Of a stretch of 25,447 nucleotides of DNA, positions 1,282 to 18,101 are shown one piece after another. The stretch lies in the IMG/VR virus record IMGVR_UViG_3300033076_000130, positions 1-25,447 of that record; one strand, given 5' to 3'. Source of the stretch: a virus. Taxonomy: Duplodnaviria > Caudoviricetes. The position numbers and the translations under genes were made by a program. The notes beneath the pieces were generated by a model. It ran no database searches. It saw only the letters and a list, made by a program, of their open reading frames with translations, and was not told the origin of the DNA. Each line of letters begins with the position of its first letter. Position 1 is the stretch's first letter.

Positions 1282-2985
1282 TTACTTACCAAGGGCAAGT
1301 CGCTTGAGTTGATTAAGTTGATCGCTTTCTTCTAAACCAAAGTTAGTCCAGTTGCCGGTGTATTCTTCTAAAGGGGCAATGCTGCCAGATACTACGCTGC
1401 ACTCTTCTAGTCCGTGTTCTGGACAGTATGCGCCGGCTTCAGACATGTTGCATTGGCCTTCTGCTACACCTTCTTTATTCCAGCCACGGGCTTGCGCTGA
1501 TTCCCAACCAAGATTCCACTGACTGGCTTCTTCGCTACCTGGCGTATAAGGGCACGTAGTAACATCGTCGTGGAACGCTTTGTATCCTGCGGCCCATGCG
1601 TCTTGACCTGTGCCTTCTGCTACACCTTGTTCTTCAACTTCTTGTGGTAGTTGTTCGTCAGCAGCAACTTCTTGTCCCAAAGCGTCGGCATCAACTTCGT
1701 TGTCTGTGGGTTCTGGTTGATCGAGTTGAATTTGATCTAGCACTGATTGGAAGTCAGGCATGTTGGACAATTGTTGCATACGGGTTATAACAATGCTTCT
1801 TGCATCTGCATTAGCGTCTGCATCTGCTAGCTCTTCTAATTGATCAAACAATTCATCGTCGCCAAAAATATCATACAATTGTTCTTTAGCGTTGGTAGCA
1901 TCCGGACCAACTGGGAAATCCTTGCTTAACAAATCAACTAATGTCTGTCTTGCTTCTGGTGTTTCTGGAATCGCCCAGGTGCCTTCTACTAAGTTGTTGA
2001 TCCACGATTCAAAAATCTGTGCTTCTTTCATGCTGTTCGATTCCTTTGTAATGCGGGCCAGTATTGGCAACGCTTCTTCAATTCTGTGATCAATGGTTTG
2101 TTCTACAAATAGTTGTTTGAGATCTTCAACTACTAAATTGCCGCCTGTTACTTCTGTGGGGCTCCACGATTCAAAATAACCTTGGTATCCGCGATTAGTT
2201 CCAAGATGTTTAAGCACAGAGTGCATATTTTTATAATATGCATCAGTTTGTTCTACTAGACTTTTAGTATCGCCTTCTAAAATCTTGCCAGCATTGGCTC
2301 TGCGGAAACGACTTAATACTGATAACTCCTCAACAATTTCATTGATATGTTGCCCACGGACGTCATACGGGAATCCACCTTGACGCACATGCTCGAGCAT
2401 TGCTTTGCCGGCCATTAGGCTACGGCTTTTTAACTTGAAACGCTCACCCTCGGAAGTTTCAACATAAATGCTTTCAATGAAACGAAAGCGAGCTTCGTCT
2501 TCGTTTAGAGATTTCTTGTGTTTAATAATAAGGCGTGCTTCGGTTGGTTTCCCGTTCCAGCTTATATTGCCTTTGCCTTGCCACGATTCTAACAAGCCTT
2601 CTGTGACAGTAGCTTGTGTGTCGCGAACATATCTTTCTTTGCTAATGTTTGCTGGCTCAAACATCAAGAAATTCTTAGTTGCAAGTTGCTTAATTTGATA
2701 CATGAAATTAAACCACTCAGTCTTGTCGTCGCCTTCCATTGTTTTACCAATGTTGTCACCAAACATCAATGTGATGTTTTTGCTGTTGACATAGATAACA
2801 ACTGTTCCGTAATTTCTGCCGGAACTCGGCACATAATCAAATACAAATTTATCAGCTTGGCTGTTGTCGGGTTCTCCCTCTGCGTTAACCGGGGGATTAT
2901 TTGTTTTGCTATCCAGGGCTTTTAAGTCAAAGTTTTTGCTGACCAAAAGATCATAAAGTTGTTGTGATGCTGTATTTTGTGCCAT
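1282..2985 (-). CDS. Probable head-internal/virion protein, modular, with an acidic C-terminal half and an embedded RMF-like module
   Basis: 567 aa directly downstream of terminase with its own TAAATA. Many hydrophobic-x-E sites (LLE, LNE, MKE, LVE, GVAE twice, MSE, LEE). Confidence 0.55.
   Translation of the reverse strand: MAQNTASQQLYDLLVSKNFDLKALDSKTNNPPVNAEGEPDNSQADKFVFDYVPSSGRNYGTVVIYVNSKNITLMFGDNIGKTMEGDDKTEWFNFMYQIKQLATKNFLMFEPANISKERYVRDTQATVTEGLLESWQGKGNISWNGKPTEARLIIKHKKSLNEDEARFRFIESIYVETSEGERFKLKSRSLMAGKAMLEHVRQGGFPYDVRGQHINEIVEELSVLSRFRRANAGKILEGDTKSLVEQTDAYYKNMHSVLKHLGTNRGYQGYFESWSPTEVTGGNLVVEDLKQLFVEQTIDHRIEEALPILARITKESNSMKEAQIFESWINNLVEGTWAIPETPEARQTLVDLLSKDFPVGPDATNAKEQLYDIFGDDELFDQLEELADADANADARSIVITRMQQLSNMPDFQSVLDQIQLDQPEPTDNEVDADALGQEVAADEQLPQEVEEQGVAEGTGQDAWAAGYKAFHDDVTTCPYTPGSEEASQWNLGWESAQARGWNKEGVAEGQCNMSEAGAYCPEHGLEECSVVSGSIAPLEEYTGNWTNFGLEESDQLNQLKRLALGK
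1456..1628. repeat. Exact 17-bp direct repeat GCCTTCTGCTACACCTT (1456-1472 and 1612-1628), 156 bp apart, encoding GVAEG in frame on the minus strand
   Basis: Read directly from the sequence; period of 52 codons. Confidence 0.92.
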
Positions 2986-2992
2986 AGTATCT

Positions 2993-2998
2993 TATTTA
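2993..2998 (-). promoter_or_regulatory. T4-type late promoter core TAAATA, 7 nt before the ATG at 2985; overlaps the terminase stop codon
   Basis: Minus strand GGTAAATAAGATACT-ATG; matches the 3' six bases of the T4 late consensus TATAAATA. Confidence 0.65.
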
Positions 2999-4564
2999 CC
3001 GCATTACAATGAAAGGCATGGGTTCAATCATCACGTCACCATGATCCCGCATTTGATTGTCCATTTCAGTGTGAAAACTCTGTAATTGTTGCATCATGCG
3101 AATTGCAAGTAATGTGCTCATCACAAGATCGTCTGTTTCCCCGGGTTTAGCAGCATAACTTGTGCCGTGTGCCACAAATGTTTTGAGCTCAGATACCAGC
3201 GGAGCACTACGAACCTTCATGCGCCCAGATTCAACCAGCACTTTGAGCTTGTTACAAGCTGTTAGTTTGGCTTTGTTTGTAGTGTTAAACCCTTTGCGGA
3301 ACCTACGGCCGCTTGCACCAGTTACTGTCCCGTCGCTTAAAAAGTAGCCTGGGATATTTTCTTCGCCGTATTCTGCAATAGATATCAAAGCAGCTTCGCC
3401 GATAGTATTATTTTCCACAGAATAATAAATTGAATTAGGGTTCTTAACGTATTCATTGATATGCTTAACAATGTCAGCTAGTATTCTAATTTGCGTTGGG
3501 ATGTCAGTTTTATTGTGCCTCCACTCGCCGATTTGCTCTGTAGTATTAGCTTCGAATATTTGTATAGCTGCGGGGTCACCACCTGTGCCTAAACTGGGGT
3601 CAAGAGATACAACATAAAATTTATTAGGGTCGGGACGTTTATACCAACGAACTTGACCAGTTTTGTAAAGAGGCTCTATACCCTGCAAGTCCAATAGTTT
3701 AATAGGAGCAATCAGCGTTTCATCGTTAATAATGAACTCGCAGCCAATCTCTCGACGGAAACGATCAGTGCCTAACTGTGCTTCCATATCCTTGCCCCAC
3801 TTTTCATCGCGGTCTGGGTGTTCTTGCCAATAGCTGCGATAACTCTTGAATCCGTTTGTGCCAACATCAGTTGGATTGCCGTATTCATCTTCGCACTTGT
3901 TGGCCATCTTCCAAATCAACGCAAACTGATCTTCGTCTGAGTTAGGGGTAGATGTAATAATCGCTTTACCACCAGTTGCTAGTGTAGGGCTAATAGAAGT
4001 CCAAAACTCCTGAGCAATAGTAGGTCTAACGAATGCAAATTCGTCACAATACAAAAGTGAAATAGACATACCACGACCGGTATTTTCTGTTGTTGTAGCA
4101 GATACAATACGTGATCCGTTTTCAAAGTCTATGCTACCCTTGTTGTAACTAGTAACACCGGCACGAATATGGTCTGGGCACAATTCATATGCAAAGCGAA
4201 TACGCTGCATAATCTCTTGTGAACCTGTGTATTTGTGTGCTGCAATAAGGATAGTTGAATCTGGTACAAACATTGCATACCACAACAAGTAACCAGCTGC
4301 CGAGGTCGACTTGCCTGTTTGTCGCGGCATCATCGATATCGAATAACGATAATTGTGATATGTATGAATTAACTTTTTCTGGTATTCATAGGGATGGTAT
4401 AACATCTTGCCCCGTGTGGGGTGTTGGATGTAGAAAAAGTGATCCATGAAGTATTCTGGACCAGTTATAGGATCTGCACATTGAACAAACTCCATGAGTT
4501 GTTCTTCGGTGAAAATCTGTTTCTTATGCGGGGCTTTAACTAATACGCCTTCTAAAGTGCTCAT
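2996..4564 (-). CDS. terL: Terminase large subunit (T4 gp17-like)
   Basis: Q-motif YEYQ, Walker A PRQTGKS, Walker B LLYCDEFAF, motif III ITSTPN, nuclease domain SLDPSLG ... VENN ... DDLVM. Confidence 0.97.
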   Translation of the reverse strand: MSTLEGVLVKAPHKKQIFTEEQLMEFVQCADPITGPEYFMDHFFYIQHPTRGKMLYHPYEYQKKLIHTYHNYRYSISMMPRQTGKSTSAAGYLLWYAMFVPDSTILIAAHKYTGSQEIMQRIRFAYELCPDHIRAGVTSYNKGSIDFENGSRIVSATTTENTGRGMSISLLYCDEFAFVRPTIAQEFWTSISPTLATGGKAIITSTPNSDEDQFALIWKMANKCEDEYGNPTDVGTNGFKSYRSYWQEHPDRDEKWGKDMEAQLGTDRFRREIGCEFIINDETLIAPIKLLDLQGIEPLYKTGQVRWYKRPDPNKFYVVSLDPSLGTGGDPAAIQIFEANTTEQIGEWRHNKTDIPTQIRILADIVKHINEYVKNPNSIYYSVENNTIGEAALISIAEYGEENIPGYFLSDGTVTGASGRRFRKGFNTTNKAKLTACNKLKVLVESGRMKVRSAPLVSELKTFVAHGTSYAAKPGETDDLVMSTLLAIRMMQQLQSFHTEMDNQMRDHGDVMIEPMPFIVMR

Positions 4565-4569
4565 GCCTT

Positions 4570-4575
4570 TATTTA
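4570..4575 (-). promoter_or_regulatory. Late promoter core TAAATA, 5 nt before the terminase ATG (second copy at 4580-4585)
   Basis: Minus strand CTAAATAATCGTAAATAAAGGC-ATG. Confidence 0.6.
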
Positions 4576-4578
4576 CGA

Positions 4579-4845
4579 TTATTTAGATTGATTTAAAGCA
4601 AACCAAGCCGGTGTTCCCGGGCGTATCCCTAAACGTTTTGCCTCGTCCCTGAGTTTAAAATGCTCGTCTTGTATTTGTTGGCGCTTGTGTGCATCGTAAG
4701 CTGCTGTCACTGATGCAGGAGTTAGTGTGCCTAGTGTGCCTTGACCTTGCAAAGCAAAAAGAGGATCGCTAGGGTCTAAGTAGCAATCCTCGTTGGAGTT
4801 TGTATATTGTAAGTTACTAGAACTAAAACGTATTTCTCTTGTCAT
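4579..4845 (-). CDS. Hypothetical protein (88 aa)
   Basis: Fills the gap between nuclease and terminase; ATGA overlap with the upstream gene; C-terminal GIRPGTPAWF motif. Confidence 0.7.
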   Translation of the reverse strand: MTREIRFSSSNLQYTNSNEDCYLDPSDPLFALQGQGTLGTLTPASVTAAYDAHKRQQIQDEHFKLRDEAKRLGIRPGTPAWFALNQSK

Positions 4846-5549
4846 TGTCCTACATTAAAACGCATGCCAGTAGCTTGCTCTACTACGCTAACTGGGACTT
4901 GATACTTGGGCAAGTCTTGCACAGGCAGTGGAGCGTTTGGCATTAGGTATGCCATTGCTTGACGACTGTTCTTTTCGTAAATAATTTTGTATAAGCGAGT
5001 CGGAATGCCTAAGCCGTTGCCAGTTACAGGATGGCCTTGATCAAAAATTCCACCGGAAACAATATAGAAGTCCCCACCTTTCGAAGCCCAGTCTCTTTCC
5101 CATGTCTCTAGTTGCTTCCAAATGCCACGATTGTTGTTGGCAACTTGGGCTACCATGTTTGTGAGCAAAAAACTTTCACTCATGATTTGATCATTTTGTG
5201 TGTTGTTGCCAGCAGGTGCCATGTGTCCACGGTCATGTGTCTTACCTACAGTAGCATAGTCAGCTAGCGTTGCTTGACATTGCTGGAATACTTGTGGATC
5301 AGCACGGAAGTTGTCTTTGCGTTTTGCCGGGCCGGTCATTGATTCTCGAGTTAAATGCTCAAATACTGCAACTGGTGCCTTTACTGAACATTTGTGGATT
5401 ACTGCATAGTTAGTGCGGCATAGCTCCTGATCGCCTGGTTGTGCTTGATATGCCACAGGACCGTTGGGGAGGAACTGTGGGCATTGTTGTGCAATCTGTG
5501 CAAAAACTGACAGAGGTAGGAATAGAAGGGTTATAATTATTTTTTTCAT
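4842..5549 (-). CDS. Sugar-non-specific DNA/RNA endonuclease (Serratia NucA/EndoG family) with Sec signal peptide
   Basis: DRGHMAP catalytic motif; ESFLLTNMVAQ...NNRGIWKQLE; IPTRLYKI; N-terminal MKKIIITLLFLPLSVFA signal peptide. Confidence 0.93.
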   Translation of the reverse strand: MKKIIITLLFLPLSVFAQIAQQCPQFLPNGPVAYQAQPGDQELCRTNYAVIHKCSVKAPVAVFEHLTRESMTGPAKRKDNFRADPQVFQQCQATLADYATVGKTHDRGHMAPAGNNTQNDQIMSESFLLTNMVAQVANNNRGIWKQLETWERDWASKGGDFYIVSGGIFDQGHPVTGNGLGIPTRLYKIIYEKNSRQAMAYLMPNAPLPVQDLPKYQVPVSVVEQATGMRFNVGQ

Positions 5550-5935
5550 CTTGGGTATCCGTTAAACGGTTTGATAGGACTGACTTTGTCAACGTCCGTT
5601 GCTTCTTCACTGGCTTGAGTGCCAATGCGAACAGCATCACTAGCAGGTAGCCCCATTGCTTGTAATGCATCTCTGATGTAATCTACAACATGTGGGTCGT
5701 AGCTTACAACAATTTCATTTTCGCCAAAAATAGATTCTTTGTGGAATCCATCGACTCCGTCTTCTGCACGTTTTTTTGCACCCTTGGCGCCAGCAATCGC
5801 AACACCAAAGCGATATTGTAAGTAAGGGTCTTGGTTTTTAAGTGCAGGAATTTTAAAAGCACCAGGTAAGGCACGACCCACATCAGCAGTAATCGAGCCT
5901 GTGCGGCCTTCTTTCATGAACTCTCGGGCTCTCAT
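5546..5935 (-). CDS. Small probable head-internal protein, paralog of the adjacent gene
   Basis: N-terminus MRAREFMKE, C-terminus KVSPIKPFNGYPR; ATGA-coupled on both sides. Confidence 0.65.
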   Translation of the reverse strand: MRAREFMKEGRTGSITADVGRALPGAFKIPALKNQDPYLQYRFGVAIAGAKGAKKRAEDGVDGFHKESIFGENEIVVSYDPHVVDYIRDALQAMGLPASDAVRIGTQASEEATDVDKVSPIKPFNGYPR

Positions 5936-6303
5936 CTAGCGTAGCCTTTGAAACCCTTAATTGGACTAACTTTGTGTGTATCGTCCATTTCCATGCTTTT
6001 ACTAAACGGAACAACTGCTTTGTGTTCAGTAGGAATCGTGGCCATTGCTTGATGTAACATATTATGCTCTTCCTCTGTGTAAGGATGAGCTGTGTTATAT
6101 TTTTCGACATAGCTCGCATTGTCCATGTCCACGGGCTTTTTACTCTTGCCGTCTGCTTTGGCCATGGCCATCATAATACGGTTCATGTGATAAGTGCGGT
6201 CATAGCCGCCCTTATCTCGGAGTTTATGGGTACCTTGAGTTGCCTGTTCGGCTCTCTTAGGCATCTTACCTTCTCCTTCAACTATGAACTCGTGTGCTCT
6301 CAT
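5932..6303 (-). CDS. Small probable head-internal protein (123 aa; start corrected to ATG 6303)
   Basis: ATG at 6303 lies just after the upstream stop (6306) and gives MRAHEFIVE, matching the paralog; C-terminus KVSPIKGFKGYAR. Confidence 0.7.
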   Translation of the reverse strand: MRAHEFIVEGEGKMPKRAEQATQGTHKLRDKGGYDRTYHMNRIMMAMAKADGKSKKPVDMDNASYVEKYNTAHPYTEEEHNMLHQAMATIPTEHKAVVPFSKSMEMDDTHKVSPIKGFKGYAR

Positions 6304-6305
6304 TA

Positions 6306-6602
6306 TTATTCGCCTACGTAGCTGCCACCGCCAGTAACACCAGCTGTGCCAGAACTTGCTGTTCCACATTCTGCTGCTGTAAAGTTTGAACCAGTGATAG
6401 TAAGGTAGTTGCCTACGCCCACATACTTGTATTCAGTCTTGTAAGCAGGAACGCTAACAGCGTTTGAGTAAATGCTGTTAGCAAAGCTAGGGGCAAGCCA
6501 AACTTGATAGGTAACCGCGGTGTTACCTGTTGAGATTTCTACTTTGTCTGTTTGCCAAACAACGTTGGCAACCGCGGTGTATACATTTGCTTGACTTGAC
6601 AT
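6306..6602 (-). CDS. Hypothetical small beta-rich protein, possibly virion decoration
   Basis: 98 aa, rich in V/T/S/A/Y, tightly packed in the late operon. Confidence 0.65.
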   Translation of the reverse strand: MSSQANVYTAVANVVWQTDKVEISTGNTAVTYQVWLAPSFANSIYSNAVSVPAYKTEYKYVGVGNYLTITGSNFTAAECGTASSGTAGVTGGGSYVGE

Positions 6603-6604
6603 AA

Positions 6605-8533
6605 TTACCCCTTAAAGCTCTTTAGCTCAGCGTATAGTTTCATGCCAAGGTCTTTGCCTTCGCCCATAACGCCTTGACGACTGTCTTGACGGTTGAACGG
6701 AGCACCTACTGCTTGACCAGTTGACTTAGGACCATTTACGCCACCTGCCCAACGCATCATGTGTGGGTCGTCTTCGCCGGTTGTTTCTTGGTCAGTTGGC
6801 CAATCAGGTTGATTCTCATCTAATTCAGCTTCGCTGCCACATGAGCACGGGCTAGTTTCGCAGCCGCAACCTTCGTCTTGTGCCATGGCGCCTTGAGCTT
6901 GCATACCTGCTAAGTTCAATAACTGTGCCAGTTGCTCTGCTGCTTCGCCTTCTGCGCTAACAGTAATATTCTTACGTGGCTCACCAGTTTCGTCCATTGA
7001 CATGTTAACACTAACGTTCATGCTTTCTGAAATCATGGCTTCTAAGTCACGATTTAAGCTGTCGTAAATGCCTTTGCCAACGATACTGCCTTTTTTAGAT
7101 TTACCGCCTTCTGAAGGTGCTACTGAACCTGCTGTTGTAGTTTCTTCGGTCTTTTCCTTTTTGTTAGGAAGACCTTTTTCCTTTGTAGAAGCAAACTTTT
7201 TCAATTCGCCTTTGGGCATTTTGGCCATTTCTTTACTGGCACCTTTTAGTTTGCTCTTGGGAATCTCGCCCTTTTGTGCAGCGTGTGCAATACCAGCGGC
7301 ACGGCGTTGAGACTTGCTTACTGCTTCTTCTTCAACACCGCCTTTGAGTTCTGCGTTCTTGCGTTCAATGTCAGATACTACATCGTTGCGACGTCTAATA
7401 TCTTTACCCATACCAGCAAAACCTACACCATCATTACCTGAAGAGTGCTTACGCAAGAAGTTTTGTGCCATTTTGCGAGCAGCTTCTAATTGCTCACGAG
7501 TCTGGCACGATGCAATAACTTTGCTCAACTTAACTAAGTCGTTGCCTTCGTCTGGACCTTCTTCAACTTTTTCCTTGCGTCCACCTTTGTGCTTGTATGC
7601 TTTACCAGTTACACGCTCTGGCTTCTTGTCAGTTTTCTTAGGACGACCACGACCGCGCTTTTCGCCGTCTGCTGGCTTGTCATCGTCGGCGCCTACACTA
7701 TAACCTGTGTTGGGATCTACACGACGAGTCACACGGCGACCTGTGCCTGTGTTTTCAATATCGTGCTTGGCACCGTGTGTAATTTCGCCCTTCTTGGTTG
7801 CTGAACGACGACGCTCAACATCCTTGAGCATGTCATCCCAGCCTTCGTCGATGTCACTGTTGTCAGTGTATTCTTTGTTGCCCATTTTAAACTTGCCACC
7901 TTTTGGTGTAGCCTTGAGCTTGCCTGTAAATGCATTGCCTTCGTCGGCGACTTGTTGTTTGCCTCGAATCGCTTGTTTGATTGCATCAGCAGCAACATCA
8001 CCTAACATTTCGTCGACTTCTTTCTTTGCACCAGCAATTTTGTCAGCAAAAGTAATCTTGTCTTTAGGAGGTGCCAGTGCAGCAAATGCTGCCTTGTCGA
8101 CACCTTCTTCTGCCATTGGTTGTTGACCAGTTGGTTGTTGGCCAGGTTGTTGTGGTTGAACTTTTCCAGTTACTGGTACGCCAGCTTTCTTTTGCAAGTC
8201 TTTGATCATGTCTTCGTCACTGCCATGACCTAGTGTATTGCCAATAGCACTAAGAGCTGCTTGAGCGCCACTCTTAACTGTGTCAACAAAGCCTTCGTCT
8301 AATTCTTCTTCTAGCTTGCCAGCTTTGGCCATTTTAGCACGGACTGCGCCTGCTACACGTTCGCCAGCAGCTTTGCTACCGTATTCTTTAGCAGCTTTGT
8401 CAGCCAATGCTTTGAAGCCAGTAGTTTTGTTATTGTGTTTACCTTCATCACGTTCGTTAAGTTGACCGTGTTTGAGTTCTGGCGTAGCACGAATCTCGTC
8501 CAGCTTCTTGTTTAAGTTGTAAAAAAATGTCAT
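6605..8533 (-). CDS. Large K/E-rich probable head-internal polyprotein-like protein with AT-hook and DUF3008-like modules
   Basis: 642 aa; SD GAGGA upstream; more than 10 hydrophobic-x-E sites separating basic segments; KRGRGRPKK at 7634-7660; DUF3008-like segment at 7142-7324. Confidence 0.6.
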   Translation of the reverse strand: MTFFYNLNKKLDEIRATPELKHGQLNERDEGKHNNKTTGFKALADKAAKEYGSKAAGERVAGAVRAKMAKAGKLEEELDEGFVDTVKSGAQAALSAIGNTLGHGSDEDMIKDLQKKAGVPVTGKVQPQQPGQQPTGQQPMAEEGVDKAAFAALAPPKDKITFADKIAGAKKEVDEMLGDVAADAIKQAIRGKQQVADEGNAFTGKLKATPKGGKFKMGNKEYTDNSDIDEGWDDMLKDVERRRSATKKGEITHGAKHDIENTGTGRRVTRRVDPNTGYSVGADDDKPADGEKRGRGRPKKTDKKPERVTGKAYKHKGGRKEKVEEGPDEGNDLVKLSKVIASCQTREQLEAARKMAQNFLRKHSSGNDGVGFAGMGKDIRRRNDVVSDIERKNAELKGGVEEEAVSKSQRRAAGIAHAAQKGEIPKSKLKGASKEMAKMPKGELKKFASTKEKGLPNKKEKTEETTTAGSVAPSEGGKSKKGSIVGKGIYDSLNRDLEAMISESMNVSVNMSMDETGEPRKNITVSAEGEAAEQLAQLLNLAGMQAQGAMAQDEGCGCETSPCSCGSEAELDENQPDWPTDQETTGEDDPHMMRWAGGVNGPKSTGQAVGAPFNRQDSRQGVMGEGKDLGMKLYAELKSFKG

Positions 8534-8539
8534 TTTAAA

Positions 8540-9148
8540 TTATCCTCGTGGGTTACGGCCAGTTGCTGGCTTTGATGGACGCTTGACTGCGCTCATTGGG
8601 CTATTATCTCCCATCGGCAAGTCATTTGTAGTTTCTGCTGGTTTAGTTTTTCCGCCAGCAATAGTAAAGTCTGAACGATATGCGTTCTTGAGAACTTCGT
8701 GATCATAGGGACCAACTGCGTAATCTTTGTTTAGAGCTTTTTGTTTCTTGTCAGGTGCAGGATAGTTAGTATTGTCCAACAATCCTTTGTTCTGGTCTTC
8801 AATATCTGTGCGCTCTTCTTCGTTGTTGTCGCTGTAATTAGGCGTTTGCATTAAAACACGGTTAGGATCAAATCCCAACAACTGTGCAATTTGACGAATT
8901 TGTGCATCAATAGCTGGATAACGGAATTCTACATCTAGTGTAGACATACGCTCATTGCTAAATGCAGGAAAGTCCGGTGTGCGAGCCTGGATTGGGGTAG
9001 TTTTAATATCACCAATTTTGACAGGATCAAACTGTTCTAGCTTTTCCTTGAGCCCTTTTAAAAATTCACTCGGCACATCACCGGCGAATTTGATGCGATA
9101 AGAGTAGGTTCTTTCGCTTTCAATTAGATAATCTCTGAAGTGTTTCAT
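8540..9148 (-). CDS. Probable head-associated protein with a capsid-targeting-like N-terminus
   Basis: N-terminus MKHFRDYLIE resembles the T4 internal-protein targeting sequence MKTYQEFIAE; own TAAATA and AGGGA SD. Confidence 0.55.
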   Translation of the reverse strand: MKHFRDYLIESERTYSYRIKFAGDVPSEFLKGLKEKLEQFDPVKIGDIKTTPIQARTPDFPAFSNERMSTLDVEFRYPAIDAQIRQIAQLLGFDPNRVLMQTPNYSDNNEEERTDIEDQNKGLLDNTNYPAPDKKQKALNKDYAVGPYDHEVLKNAYRSDFTIAGGKTKPAETTNDLPMGDNSPMSAVKRPSKPATGRNPRG

Positions 9149-17365: not shown

Positions 17366-17395
17366 ATTATAGCAGATTTTATGCAGCGATGTCTA
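17366..17395 (-). promoter_or_regulatory. Sigma70-type early promoter TAGACA-N18-TATAAT with extended -10 TG, 5 nt before ATG 17360
   Basis: Minus strand TAGACA TCGCTGCATAAAATCTGC TATAAT GCAGT ATG. Confidence 0.7.
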
Positions 17396-18101
17396 TTCCA
17401 AAGGTGAGATTTATCCATTCTCGCATGGCATTTCGAGTAGGGTGAAGTTGATCAGATTCTAATCGTTCATTTGATTGATTAGCCCACTCAAACGGAGTAG
17501 TATCGAGTTTTATTTTTGACCAATCAATCAAATTATAATAAGCAGAGTCTTTGTCCACAGTGCCAAAATAATGCTCGTGTCTGGTGTGGGAATAATCCAA
17601 AAATGGATTGTAGATGAAACTCATTTGATACTCAACATCCAACTTTTCTAAAAAACTTTGGGTATAGAGTATATTACGCAAACTATTATCTGTTAAGTAT
17701 CGATTGTCAGCGCCGAGATATTGTGTTTTAAAAATTTGTCTTATATCGCCCGGGCAGGTACTGTCCCATGTCCAAGATCCTGCTTGGCCACCTGAGTGAT
17801 ACCACACAGATCCTTCAAGTGGTGTGCAAAAACTATATGCTGGATTTCCTTCCCAAGCGCCGGGGTAAGTTTCGTGTAGCTCTCTAGTAATAACTGTGTC
17901 TAAGCGATTAATCCCAGTCCAGATAACAACAACTTTATCGTAATTATTTCGCGAACACTCATACGCAACCCTGGCTGCTATAGCTTGGTTGCCAGTGCCG
18001 CTGGTTGCTTTTACTGCGATGTGGGGATGTAGTTTCCAAGATGTAGTTGTTTGTTCGCCCAGTGTGCTACAAAAACTACAACCAACAATCAATGTTTTCA
18101 A
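17379..18101 (-). CDS. SGNH/GDSL hydrolase-like protein
   Basis: IVGCSF (block I), SGTGN (block II), VIWTGINR, DQLHPT (DxxH, block V). Confidence 0.75.
   Translation of the reverse strand: MKTLIVGCSFCSTLGEQTTTSWKLHPHIAVKATSGTGNQAIAARVAYECSRNNYDKVVVIWTGINRLDTVITRELHETYPGAWEGNPAYSFCTPLEGSVWYHSGGQAGSWTWDSTCPGDIRQIFKTQYLGADNRYLTDNSLRNILYTQSFLEKLDVEYQMSFIYNPFLDYSHTRHEHYFGTVDKDSAYYNLIDWSKIKLDTTPFEWANQSNERLESDQLHPTRNAMREWINLTFGIDIAA

Follow-up and report, generated by a model that had tools for sequence, protein, structure and literature searches.

Exchange of an in-frame cassette within the gene for a jumbo-phage virion protein, bounded by linkers with a predicted head-protease site

Genomic setting and the host gene

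The window, i.e., the whole stretch of 25,447 nucleotides that was analyzed, is a late region of a jumbo myophage with genes for the sheath, two tube proteins, head closure, the terminase and the adaptor. It makes up the entire virus record, and because this fragment is only 7% complete, the phage's own protease and recombinase are not seen in it. On the minus strand, at 1282..2985, lies the gene for P0001, a conserved late/virion protein of 567 aa with a variable C-terminal slot. This protein matches PHROG 13484 ('virion structural protein', E 6e-12) and has relatives in 59 phage records of jumbo phages of the Rak2, PA5oct and 121Q type. The distant homolog in PA5oct, gp278, is annotated as detected in the virion by ESI-MS/MS, and the gene order around the terminase is the same in PA5oct and in the window.

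All parts of the P0001 gene are read from the minus strand. The conserved N-terminal core (residues 1-410; 1756..2985) is 72-100% identical within the close clade and 100% identical in the ortholog P0005. It is followed by the slot, in which a cargo body (1473..1611) lies between an upstream linker copy (1612..1628) and a downstream linker copy (1456..1472). Downstream of this cassette, a short Cys/His motif (CN...CPEHG..EC, residues 512-530; 1396..1452) forms a possible metal-binding mini-module. This motif is optional among orthologs and is missing from L001, L004, P0036, P0041, P0044 and P0048. The conserved C-terminal tail (residues about 540-567; 1285..1368) is present in filled and empty alleles.

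Several other genes of the window are also worth describing. Three small late genes on the minus strand, at 5546-5935, 5932-6369 and 8540-9148, encode similar N-terminal peptides that end in Glu (MRAREFMKEG; MRAHEFIVEG, starting from an internal Met at residue 23; and MKHFRDYLIES), and these are, presumably, reminiscent of the capsid-targeting peptide of T4. A similar Glu-ending N-terminal peptide opens P0004, another protein that carries the module described below. The gene at 6605-8533 (minus strand) encodes a late protein of 642 aa that matches DUF3008 (E 5e-15) and shows several short PHROG matches between Glu-ending stretches; it is probably another string of modules, without GVAE linkers. 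Between the terminase and the small head genes, 4842-5549 (minus strand) encodes a DNA/RNA non-specific endonuclease (PF01223, E 7e-41) that seems to possess a signal peptide. Genes resembling sugar- or surface-modifying enzymes are found at 3-455, 436-1278 and 17379-18101 (minus strand); the second matches DUF6492, and the first and third share a similar N-terminal GCSF motif.

A direct repeat in one reading frame

The two linker copies are exact copies of a 17-mer (1456-1472 and 1612-1628), the only exact direct repeat of at least 15 nt in the 25,447 nt of the window. A third site is absent even when 3 mismatches are allowed. The two matches found with up to 3 mismatches compare with a shuffle mean of 0.08, and none of 100 shuffles reached two. 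As the record and the window are the same, scanning the full record for the 17-mer, a check proposed in the earlier note, gives these two matches only. Read on the minus strand, both copies are xAA GGT GTA GCA GAA GGC and encode Q453 or E505, followed by G-V-A-E-G at residues 454-458 and 506-510 of the ORF at 1282-2985. The copies are 156 nt, or 52 codons, apart and in frame. Exact matching and the reading of the ORF therefore confirm that exact in-frame 17-bp direct repeats flank a module, as had been claimed.

Given the peptide, the probability that the same five codons are used twice is 0.0076 under the codon usage of the window, and multiplication by 0.67 for the third base that the Q and E codons have in common gives about 0.005 for the identity of the repeat. 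Across many scanned windows, such a value is not vanishing, which leaves some room for chance or for codon bias in a linker of low complexity as the origin of the repeat, or for an assembly artefact. However, empty and swapped alleles have been found, and independent contigs span both junctions. A Logan contig of 1509 nt from run X1, possibly the source sample, equals 1513-3021 without any difference, and a contig from run X2 matches 1392-1629 with 13 differences. Assembly error is therefore unlikely, and chance or artefact as a whole is largely refuted and scarcely credible. Codon bias alone is ruled out by the sharing of rare codons in 48 linkers.

A joint left by deletion of the 156 nt, which the earlier note had proposed to look for, was not present in the Logan contigs of three runs from one study; since contigs drop rare variants, their silence does not show that such a deletion is absent. 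RNA runs that contain the sequence are not listed.

Filled, empty and exchanged alleles

From 136 loci plus the window, 77 distinct full-length orthologs were obtained, with lengths of 452-1365 aa. At least one GVAE-type linker is present past residue 400 in 51 of these 77. In the close clade, 41 of the 55 proteins examined contain both anchors of the slot; 21 are filled, with inserts of 49-277 aa, and 20 are short, with at most 15 residues between the anchors. The 21 inserts fall into 11 unrelated groups. In integrons, small cassettes accumulate and are exchanged at one site, and the slot resembles them in this variable content.

Replacement of a module is seen between P0001 and P0005. These proteins have an exact prefix of 452 aa and an exact suffix of 61 aa, and their middle modules are unrelated. 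Identity extends to residue 452, the outer boundary of the upstream repeat, and restarts within the downstream repeat, at V507, and the upstream GVAE is entirely missing from P0005. A search of viral contigs did not find the DNA of P0005, whose junctions are therefore known at the protein level only; like P0019 and P0052, it is known as a protein sequence alone.

P0052 is an empty allele that reads VEEQ-GVAEG-QCNM, the expected remnant after the loss of 52 codons, and its alignment with P0001 (73.8% identity) contains a gap of exactly 52 aa. A second empty allele with a single GVAEG, P0019, shows a gap of 53 aa and 74.7% identity with P0001. Both also have a filled near twin: P0027 and P0052 are 97.8% identical apart from an insert of 259 aa, and P0018 and P0019 are 95.9% identical apart from one of 124 aa. 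Alignment of orthologs thus yielded both single-GVAEG empty alleles (P0052 and P0019) and a different module (P0005). The proposal that modules are gained, lost or replaced in frame at this site is borne out by the single-GVAEG alleles, the differing inserts and the occurrence of the same module in other genes. Sequence comparison gives good support to the 156-nt segment as a real, exchangeable cassette.

Two further observations concern the inserts. In P0006, only the first 9 residues of a P0005-type module are retained ahead of the downstream linker, which looks like the result of a deletion within the module, between two short stretches that contain KD. The inserts of P0038 and P0042 open with a stretch that resembles a twin-arginine (TAT) signal (PF10518, E 0.002 for P0038), which is odd within a phage late protein.

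The same module in other proteins

The Rmf/CrpP-like module of the window is found in seven host proteins, i.e., P0001, P0002, P0003, P0004, P0057, P0058 and P0062. Only one of the 21 pairs of these proteins (P0058/P0062) is related outside the module. P0002 and P0003 have the whole end WNKEGVAE in common. At the DNA level, homology with L081 extends over 1605-1458 (124/148 nt), and its end lies within the downstream linker; when a narrower DNA pattern was used to search for the end of the module, it returned the L081 contig again and nothing else. Small free-standing relatives of the module also occur, namely P0060 (50 aa) and P0065 (71 aa), and a different Rmf-like module lies between linkers in a protein of the relative G004.

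The surroundings of some of these modules are also of note. L081 contains, at 1613-8168, a linker-rich run of adjacent genes beside a cytidylyltransferase-like gene, and in P0003 a cytidylyltransferase-like domain (PF01467) is fused to modules that include the Rmf-like cargo. G004 proteins with four and two linkers are encoded at 4028-5863 of L270 and 3192-4583 of L271, both on the minus strand, and among their modules are a zinc-finger-like unit, a further Rmf-like unit and DUF6321.

In runs X1 and X2, which belong to one study, contig breaks lie at the edges of the repeats or at most 4 nt away. One X2 contig joins the C-terminal flank of the window (1283-1476, 7 differences) at 1476 to the end of a P0005-type module. 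The X2 contig that holds the module and its flank (1392-1629) departs after 1629, and its coding sequence ahead of the first repeat is foreign. In an X1 contig, the module departs at 1458 into foreign sequence, and in another contig, it is preceded by a GVAEG written in different codons. With depths of 5.4 and 5.9 and an overlap of 30 nt, the last two may be one molecule. A deep contig contains two linker matches that are 333 nt apart and also in frame. Logan assemblies presumably use words of 31 letters; the repeats are shorter than this, which makes false joins through repeats unlikely. The homology of the module stops at the identical base, 1458, in two independent records, i.e., the contig and L081.

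Linker DNA and the likely route of recombination

Codon use was compared across 48 linkers whose two flanks are both distinct, taken from 137 loci selected by protein. The 38 loci with the exact 17-mer were picked by DNA and were excluded from this test; three of them belong to frames shorter than 100 aa, and some of the remaining ones, in unrelated long proteins, appear to be chance matches. The linker Ala is GCG in 19 of 48 cases versus 2.1 expected (GCG makes up 2.8% in other AE pairs), Gly is GGT in 33 versus 15.7 expected, and Val is GTG in 21 of 28 versus 11.4 expected. For 26 pairs of adjacent linkers, the summed matches were 354 against 328 +/- 5 in simulations, and none of 1000 simulations was as high. 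As the linkers are related by descent, these codon and match counts are not independent, and the shared codons may reflect common descent of the linkers and not present-day selection at the DNA level.

Conservation of linker codons therefore exceeds codon bias, as shown by the excess of GCG, GGT and GTG and by the simulated pairs. The exact identity of the two copies, which the earlier note pointed out, is less general. The GTA-GCA variant of the window is a minor one (2/48 linkers), adjacent linkers are hardly closer to each other (mean 13.6/17 matches) than random linkers (13.0/17), and exact identity, found in 1/26 adjacent pairs, is not a rule. The perfect match in the window therefore likely marks a recent duplication or conversion and not a requirement.

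Among orthologs with DNA, all 13 clean indels are in frame. A linker was called at both ends in 6, at one end in 3 and at neither in 4. In 10 of the 13, at least 13/18 nt are repeated, and one indel used a non-linker repeat of 24 nt. Local-alignment ends fall in linker zones in 130 of 779 cases versus 37.9 expected; most lie elsewhere, and the ends are not independent. Three genes of G004 contain a linker pattern, 7 times in total, and the reversed control gave none.

The recurrence of breaks at one base, and the distribution of the linker over many phages (the 38 exact 17-mer loci), are features that a dedicated site-specific recombinase or mobile-element enzyme could explain, acting on the linker in integron fashion with excised circles as carriers. 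A precedent is found in the promoter early stem loop (PeSL) elements, for which the available text describes mini-circles formed by the repeats (PMC2839356). However, tyrosine integrase (PF00589) was found in none of four partial relatives (39-62% complete) and is not among the listed ORFs of the window. The coding strand at 1450-1635 folds no better into a hairpin than shuffles do (z +0.53), linkers differ on average at 3-4 of 17 nt, and other repeats serve too. A dedicated recombinase is therefore regarded as very unlikely. Of the integron-like shuffling suggested in the earlier note, the variable cassette content at one site stands, and the strict sense is not supported, as neither an integrase in the four partial relatives nor a hairpin was found. 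A strict integron is rejected; the site is a direct repeat that lacks an attC-like fold.

A RecA/UvsX gene is present in all five partial relatives, and the recombination system of T4 needs less than 50 bp according to the available text of PMC2839356. Recombination at the linkers is likely, and recombination by short homology is its simplest reading.

The linker as a predicted cleavage site

All 21 inserts of the close clade end in a hydrophobic residue, any residue and Glu ([VILMF]-X-E), no more than 3 residues away from the downstream anchor; the background is 0.085. The insert ends are G[VM]AE in only 5 of the 21 and x[VM]AE in 11, so the peptide signal is more widespread than the repeat in the DNA. 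A gp21-type Peptidase_S77 is encoded in two of five partial relatives, G001 of the close clade and G003, and many [ILM]-X-E strings are found towards the N-termini of the core and capsid proteins beside this protease in G001. Head-protease sites that end in Glu are described in the accessible part of PMC5694885 for SPN3US (A-X-E), phiKZ (S/A/G-X-E) and T4 Alt (ITE and LTE). V-A-E is not among the motifs documented there, and valine at position -3 is assumed from its likeness to I and L. A word search of the available text of PMC7318152 found no cleavage sites. Together, the Glu-ending inserts, the S77 protease in relatives and the cutting of head proteases after Glu make cutting at V-A-E plausible, and the linker peptide is a plausible candidate for a head-protease cut site, with cuts predicted after E457 and E509.

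One alternative is that the linker acts in recombination and as a flexible spacer but stays uncut, by which modules would remain attached and be displayed, on the virion or inside it, as a variable multidomain protein. This is quite unlikely, as the Glu at the joint is found in 21/21 inserts though the rest of the linker varies, and the [ILM]-X-E strings beside the S77 protease of G001 also argue against it.

The wider reach of the peptide signal agrees with another alternative, in which the linker serves solely as a protease site. Modules would then arrive anywhere through rare illegitimate or micro-homology recombination, those in frame and bounded by Glu would be selected, recombination in the long flanks would spread the alleles, and the linker DNA would be inherited baggage without preference for crossovers. 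The indels that employ non-linker repeats, the majority of alignment ends outside linkers and the lack of an upstream GVAE in P0005 fit this well. On the other hand, rare codons are common to 48 linkers with distinct flanks, homology stops at base 1458 in two independent records, exactly one linker is left in empty alleles, and the linker pattern recurs in G004 against a clean control. A protease site alone is therefore considered unlikely.

The explanation held to be probable is that of an exchangeable in-frame cassette that is moved by homologous recombination between short linkers, each linker being predicted to be cut by a T4-type prohead protease so that the 52-residue module is freed inside the head. 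Each module would travel with one linker. Since the linkers share one frame, crossovers cause no frameshift, and any two linkers that cross over would add, remove or swap whole modules. The crossovers would likely be driven by phage machinery of the UvsX/RecA type and not by a site-specific integrase, and the long identical flanks would then spread alleles among strains. Selection would preserve hydrophobic-X-Glu at all joints, since cargo left uncut would interfere with the host protein or would be unable to leave the head.

The cargo module

The cargo body resembles a helical hairpin of the Rmf/CrpP type, with its core at 1492-1602 (residues 462-498; minus strand), as judged from PF04957, NF041886 and a structure model. 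The peptide predicted to be released (residues 458-509, 52 aa) is acidic, with 3 K/R versus 8 D/E. Both family scores are below the cut-offs (PF04957, 22.2 bits versus 27.9; NF041886, 23.6 bits versus 28). The best match in the atlas was an RMF cluster (0.86), which is a lead only. In an alignment to 6h4n_v (E 0.49), residues G16, C29, P30, Y31, W40, G43 and W44 of Escherichia coli RMF are aligned, and alignment and model agree on a two-helix G...CPY...W..GW core. The predicted model has helices at 4-20 and 29-43 with modest confidence (mean pLDDT 66.8). Foldseek with this modest-confidence model gave no match to solved RMF, VIA-align gave generic helical hairpins (best Z 4.7) with RMF not among the best 50 matches listed, and a single-sequence PDB search with the module returned nothing.

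Compared with RMF, the module has D at R11 and E at R45, shows a gap at G23 and lacks the basic N-terminus. Ribosome binding or dimerisation of RMF needs R3, K5, R11, R45 and G23, as reported in the accessible text of PMC8126665. A role in ribosome hibernation is rejected, as the key ribosome-binding residues of RMF are missing; the module is therefore likely a small acidic binding protein and not a ribosome hibernation factor. A word search of the available text of PMC7824862 found neither a passage on RMF nor one on polyproteins. By analogy with T4 IPI, the cargo likely acts on a host factor early in infection.

Comparison with known systems

PeSL cassettes of the T4-type phages RB49 and phi1 (Arbiol et al. 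2010, PMC2839356) are alike in that short repeated linkers mark the insertion, deletion and replacement of small genes of unknown function. In the available text, the authors liken them to integrons, and a dedicated recombinase was not identified. PeSLs, as described there, are intergenic promoter-terminator or stem-loop elements around whole genes, whereas the linkers described here are coding, in frame, within one ORF and similar to protease sites. The T4 proteins IPI-III and Alt, processed by gp21, are alike in their Glu-ending sites at the joints (a motif fit only in the present case) and in the S77 protease, which is found in relatives of the window. T4 IPs are small, variable proteins that are packaged into the head, where the prohead protease cuts them after Glu, and that are injected (according to the text seen of PMC9958956 and PMC5694885), and more than 30 IP variants at repeat-associated loci are mentioned in the available part of PMC2839356. 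They are separate genes with an N-terminal targeting peptide, whereas the cargo described here is internal to a protein of 567 aa, with a site on each side.

Polyvalent proteins (Iyer et al. 2017, PMC5512222) also combine unrelated domains in one polypeptide. In the sections available, early delivery and release by peptidases are predicted for them, and cassette-like recombination is suggested at one locus. They differ in that release is by embedded, mostly zincin-like peptidases, and no repeated coding joint is described in these sections; the word 'linker' is absent from the main text. Profile searches of P0001 gave no embedded peptidase or known effector domain and only the weak RMF match. 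Members of the Rmf/CrpP family share the two-helix hairpin core, and the module differs from them in scoring below both cut-offs, in being acidic and in having lost the ribosome-binding residues. Integrons differ from the slot in that here no integrase was found in the four partial relatives, no attC-like folded site is present and the cassettes are protein domains in one frame.

On the features tested, the slot is a member of neither integrons, PeSLs nor IP genes. It resembles PeSL shuffling that has been moved into a reading frame and coupled with T4-style head processing, the latter being predicted here. No description of in-frame linker cassettes in phage virion proteins was found in the open-access literature; cleavage sites of PA5oct- and Rak2-type phages may sit in supplements or subscription papers.

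Meaning for jumbo phages

The virion-protein gene is likely a slot into which small proteins can be plugged for packing into the virus particle. A broader reading is put forward tentatively, as quite possible and no further than that: in a clade of giant freshwater phages, one coding word of 15-17 bases may be both the crossover point by which modules move among genes and phages and the head-protease site that releases them, giving these phages a shared and rapidly reshuffled library of injected mini-proteins. In the window, the swap at the slot may then have taken place inside a single strain lineage, and the Rmf-like cargo of the slot may be a repurposed host-takeover or anti-defence peptide. 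The window is an unusually clean case, with a pair that is identical outside the cassette, exact empty alleles and co-sampled contig breaks at both repeat edges. With it, the old 'linker' theory of modular phage evolution can be put to the test below the level of the gene, among domains. The linkers would also provide objective boundaries for hundreds of small uncharacterised modules, and the modules bounded in this way would form a list of candidate counter-defence and host-takeover peptides for use with laboratory strains. If the proposed explanation is true, jumbo phages could vary their injected content without new promoters, start sites or targeting signals, as a module would need a linker only.
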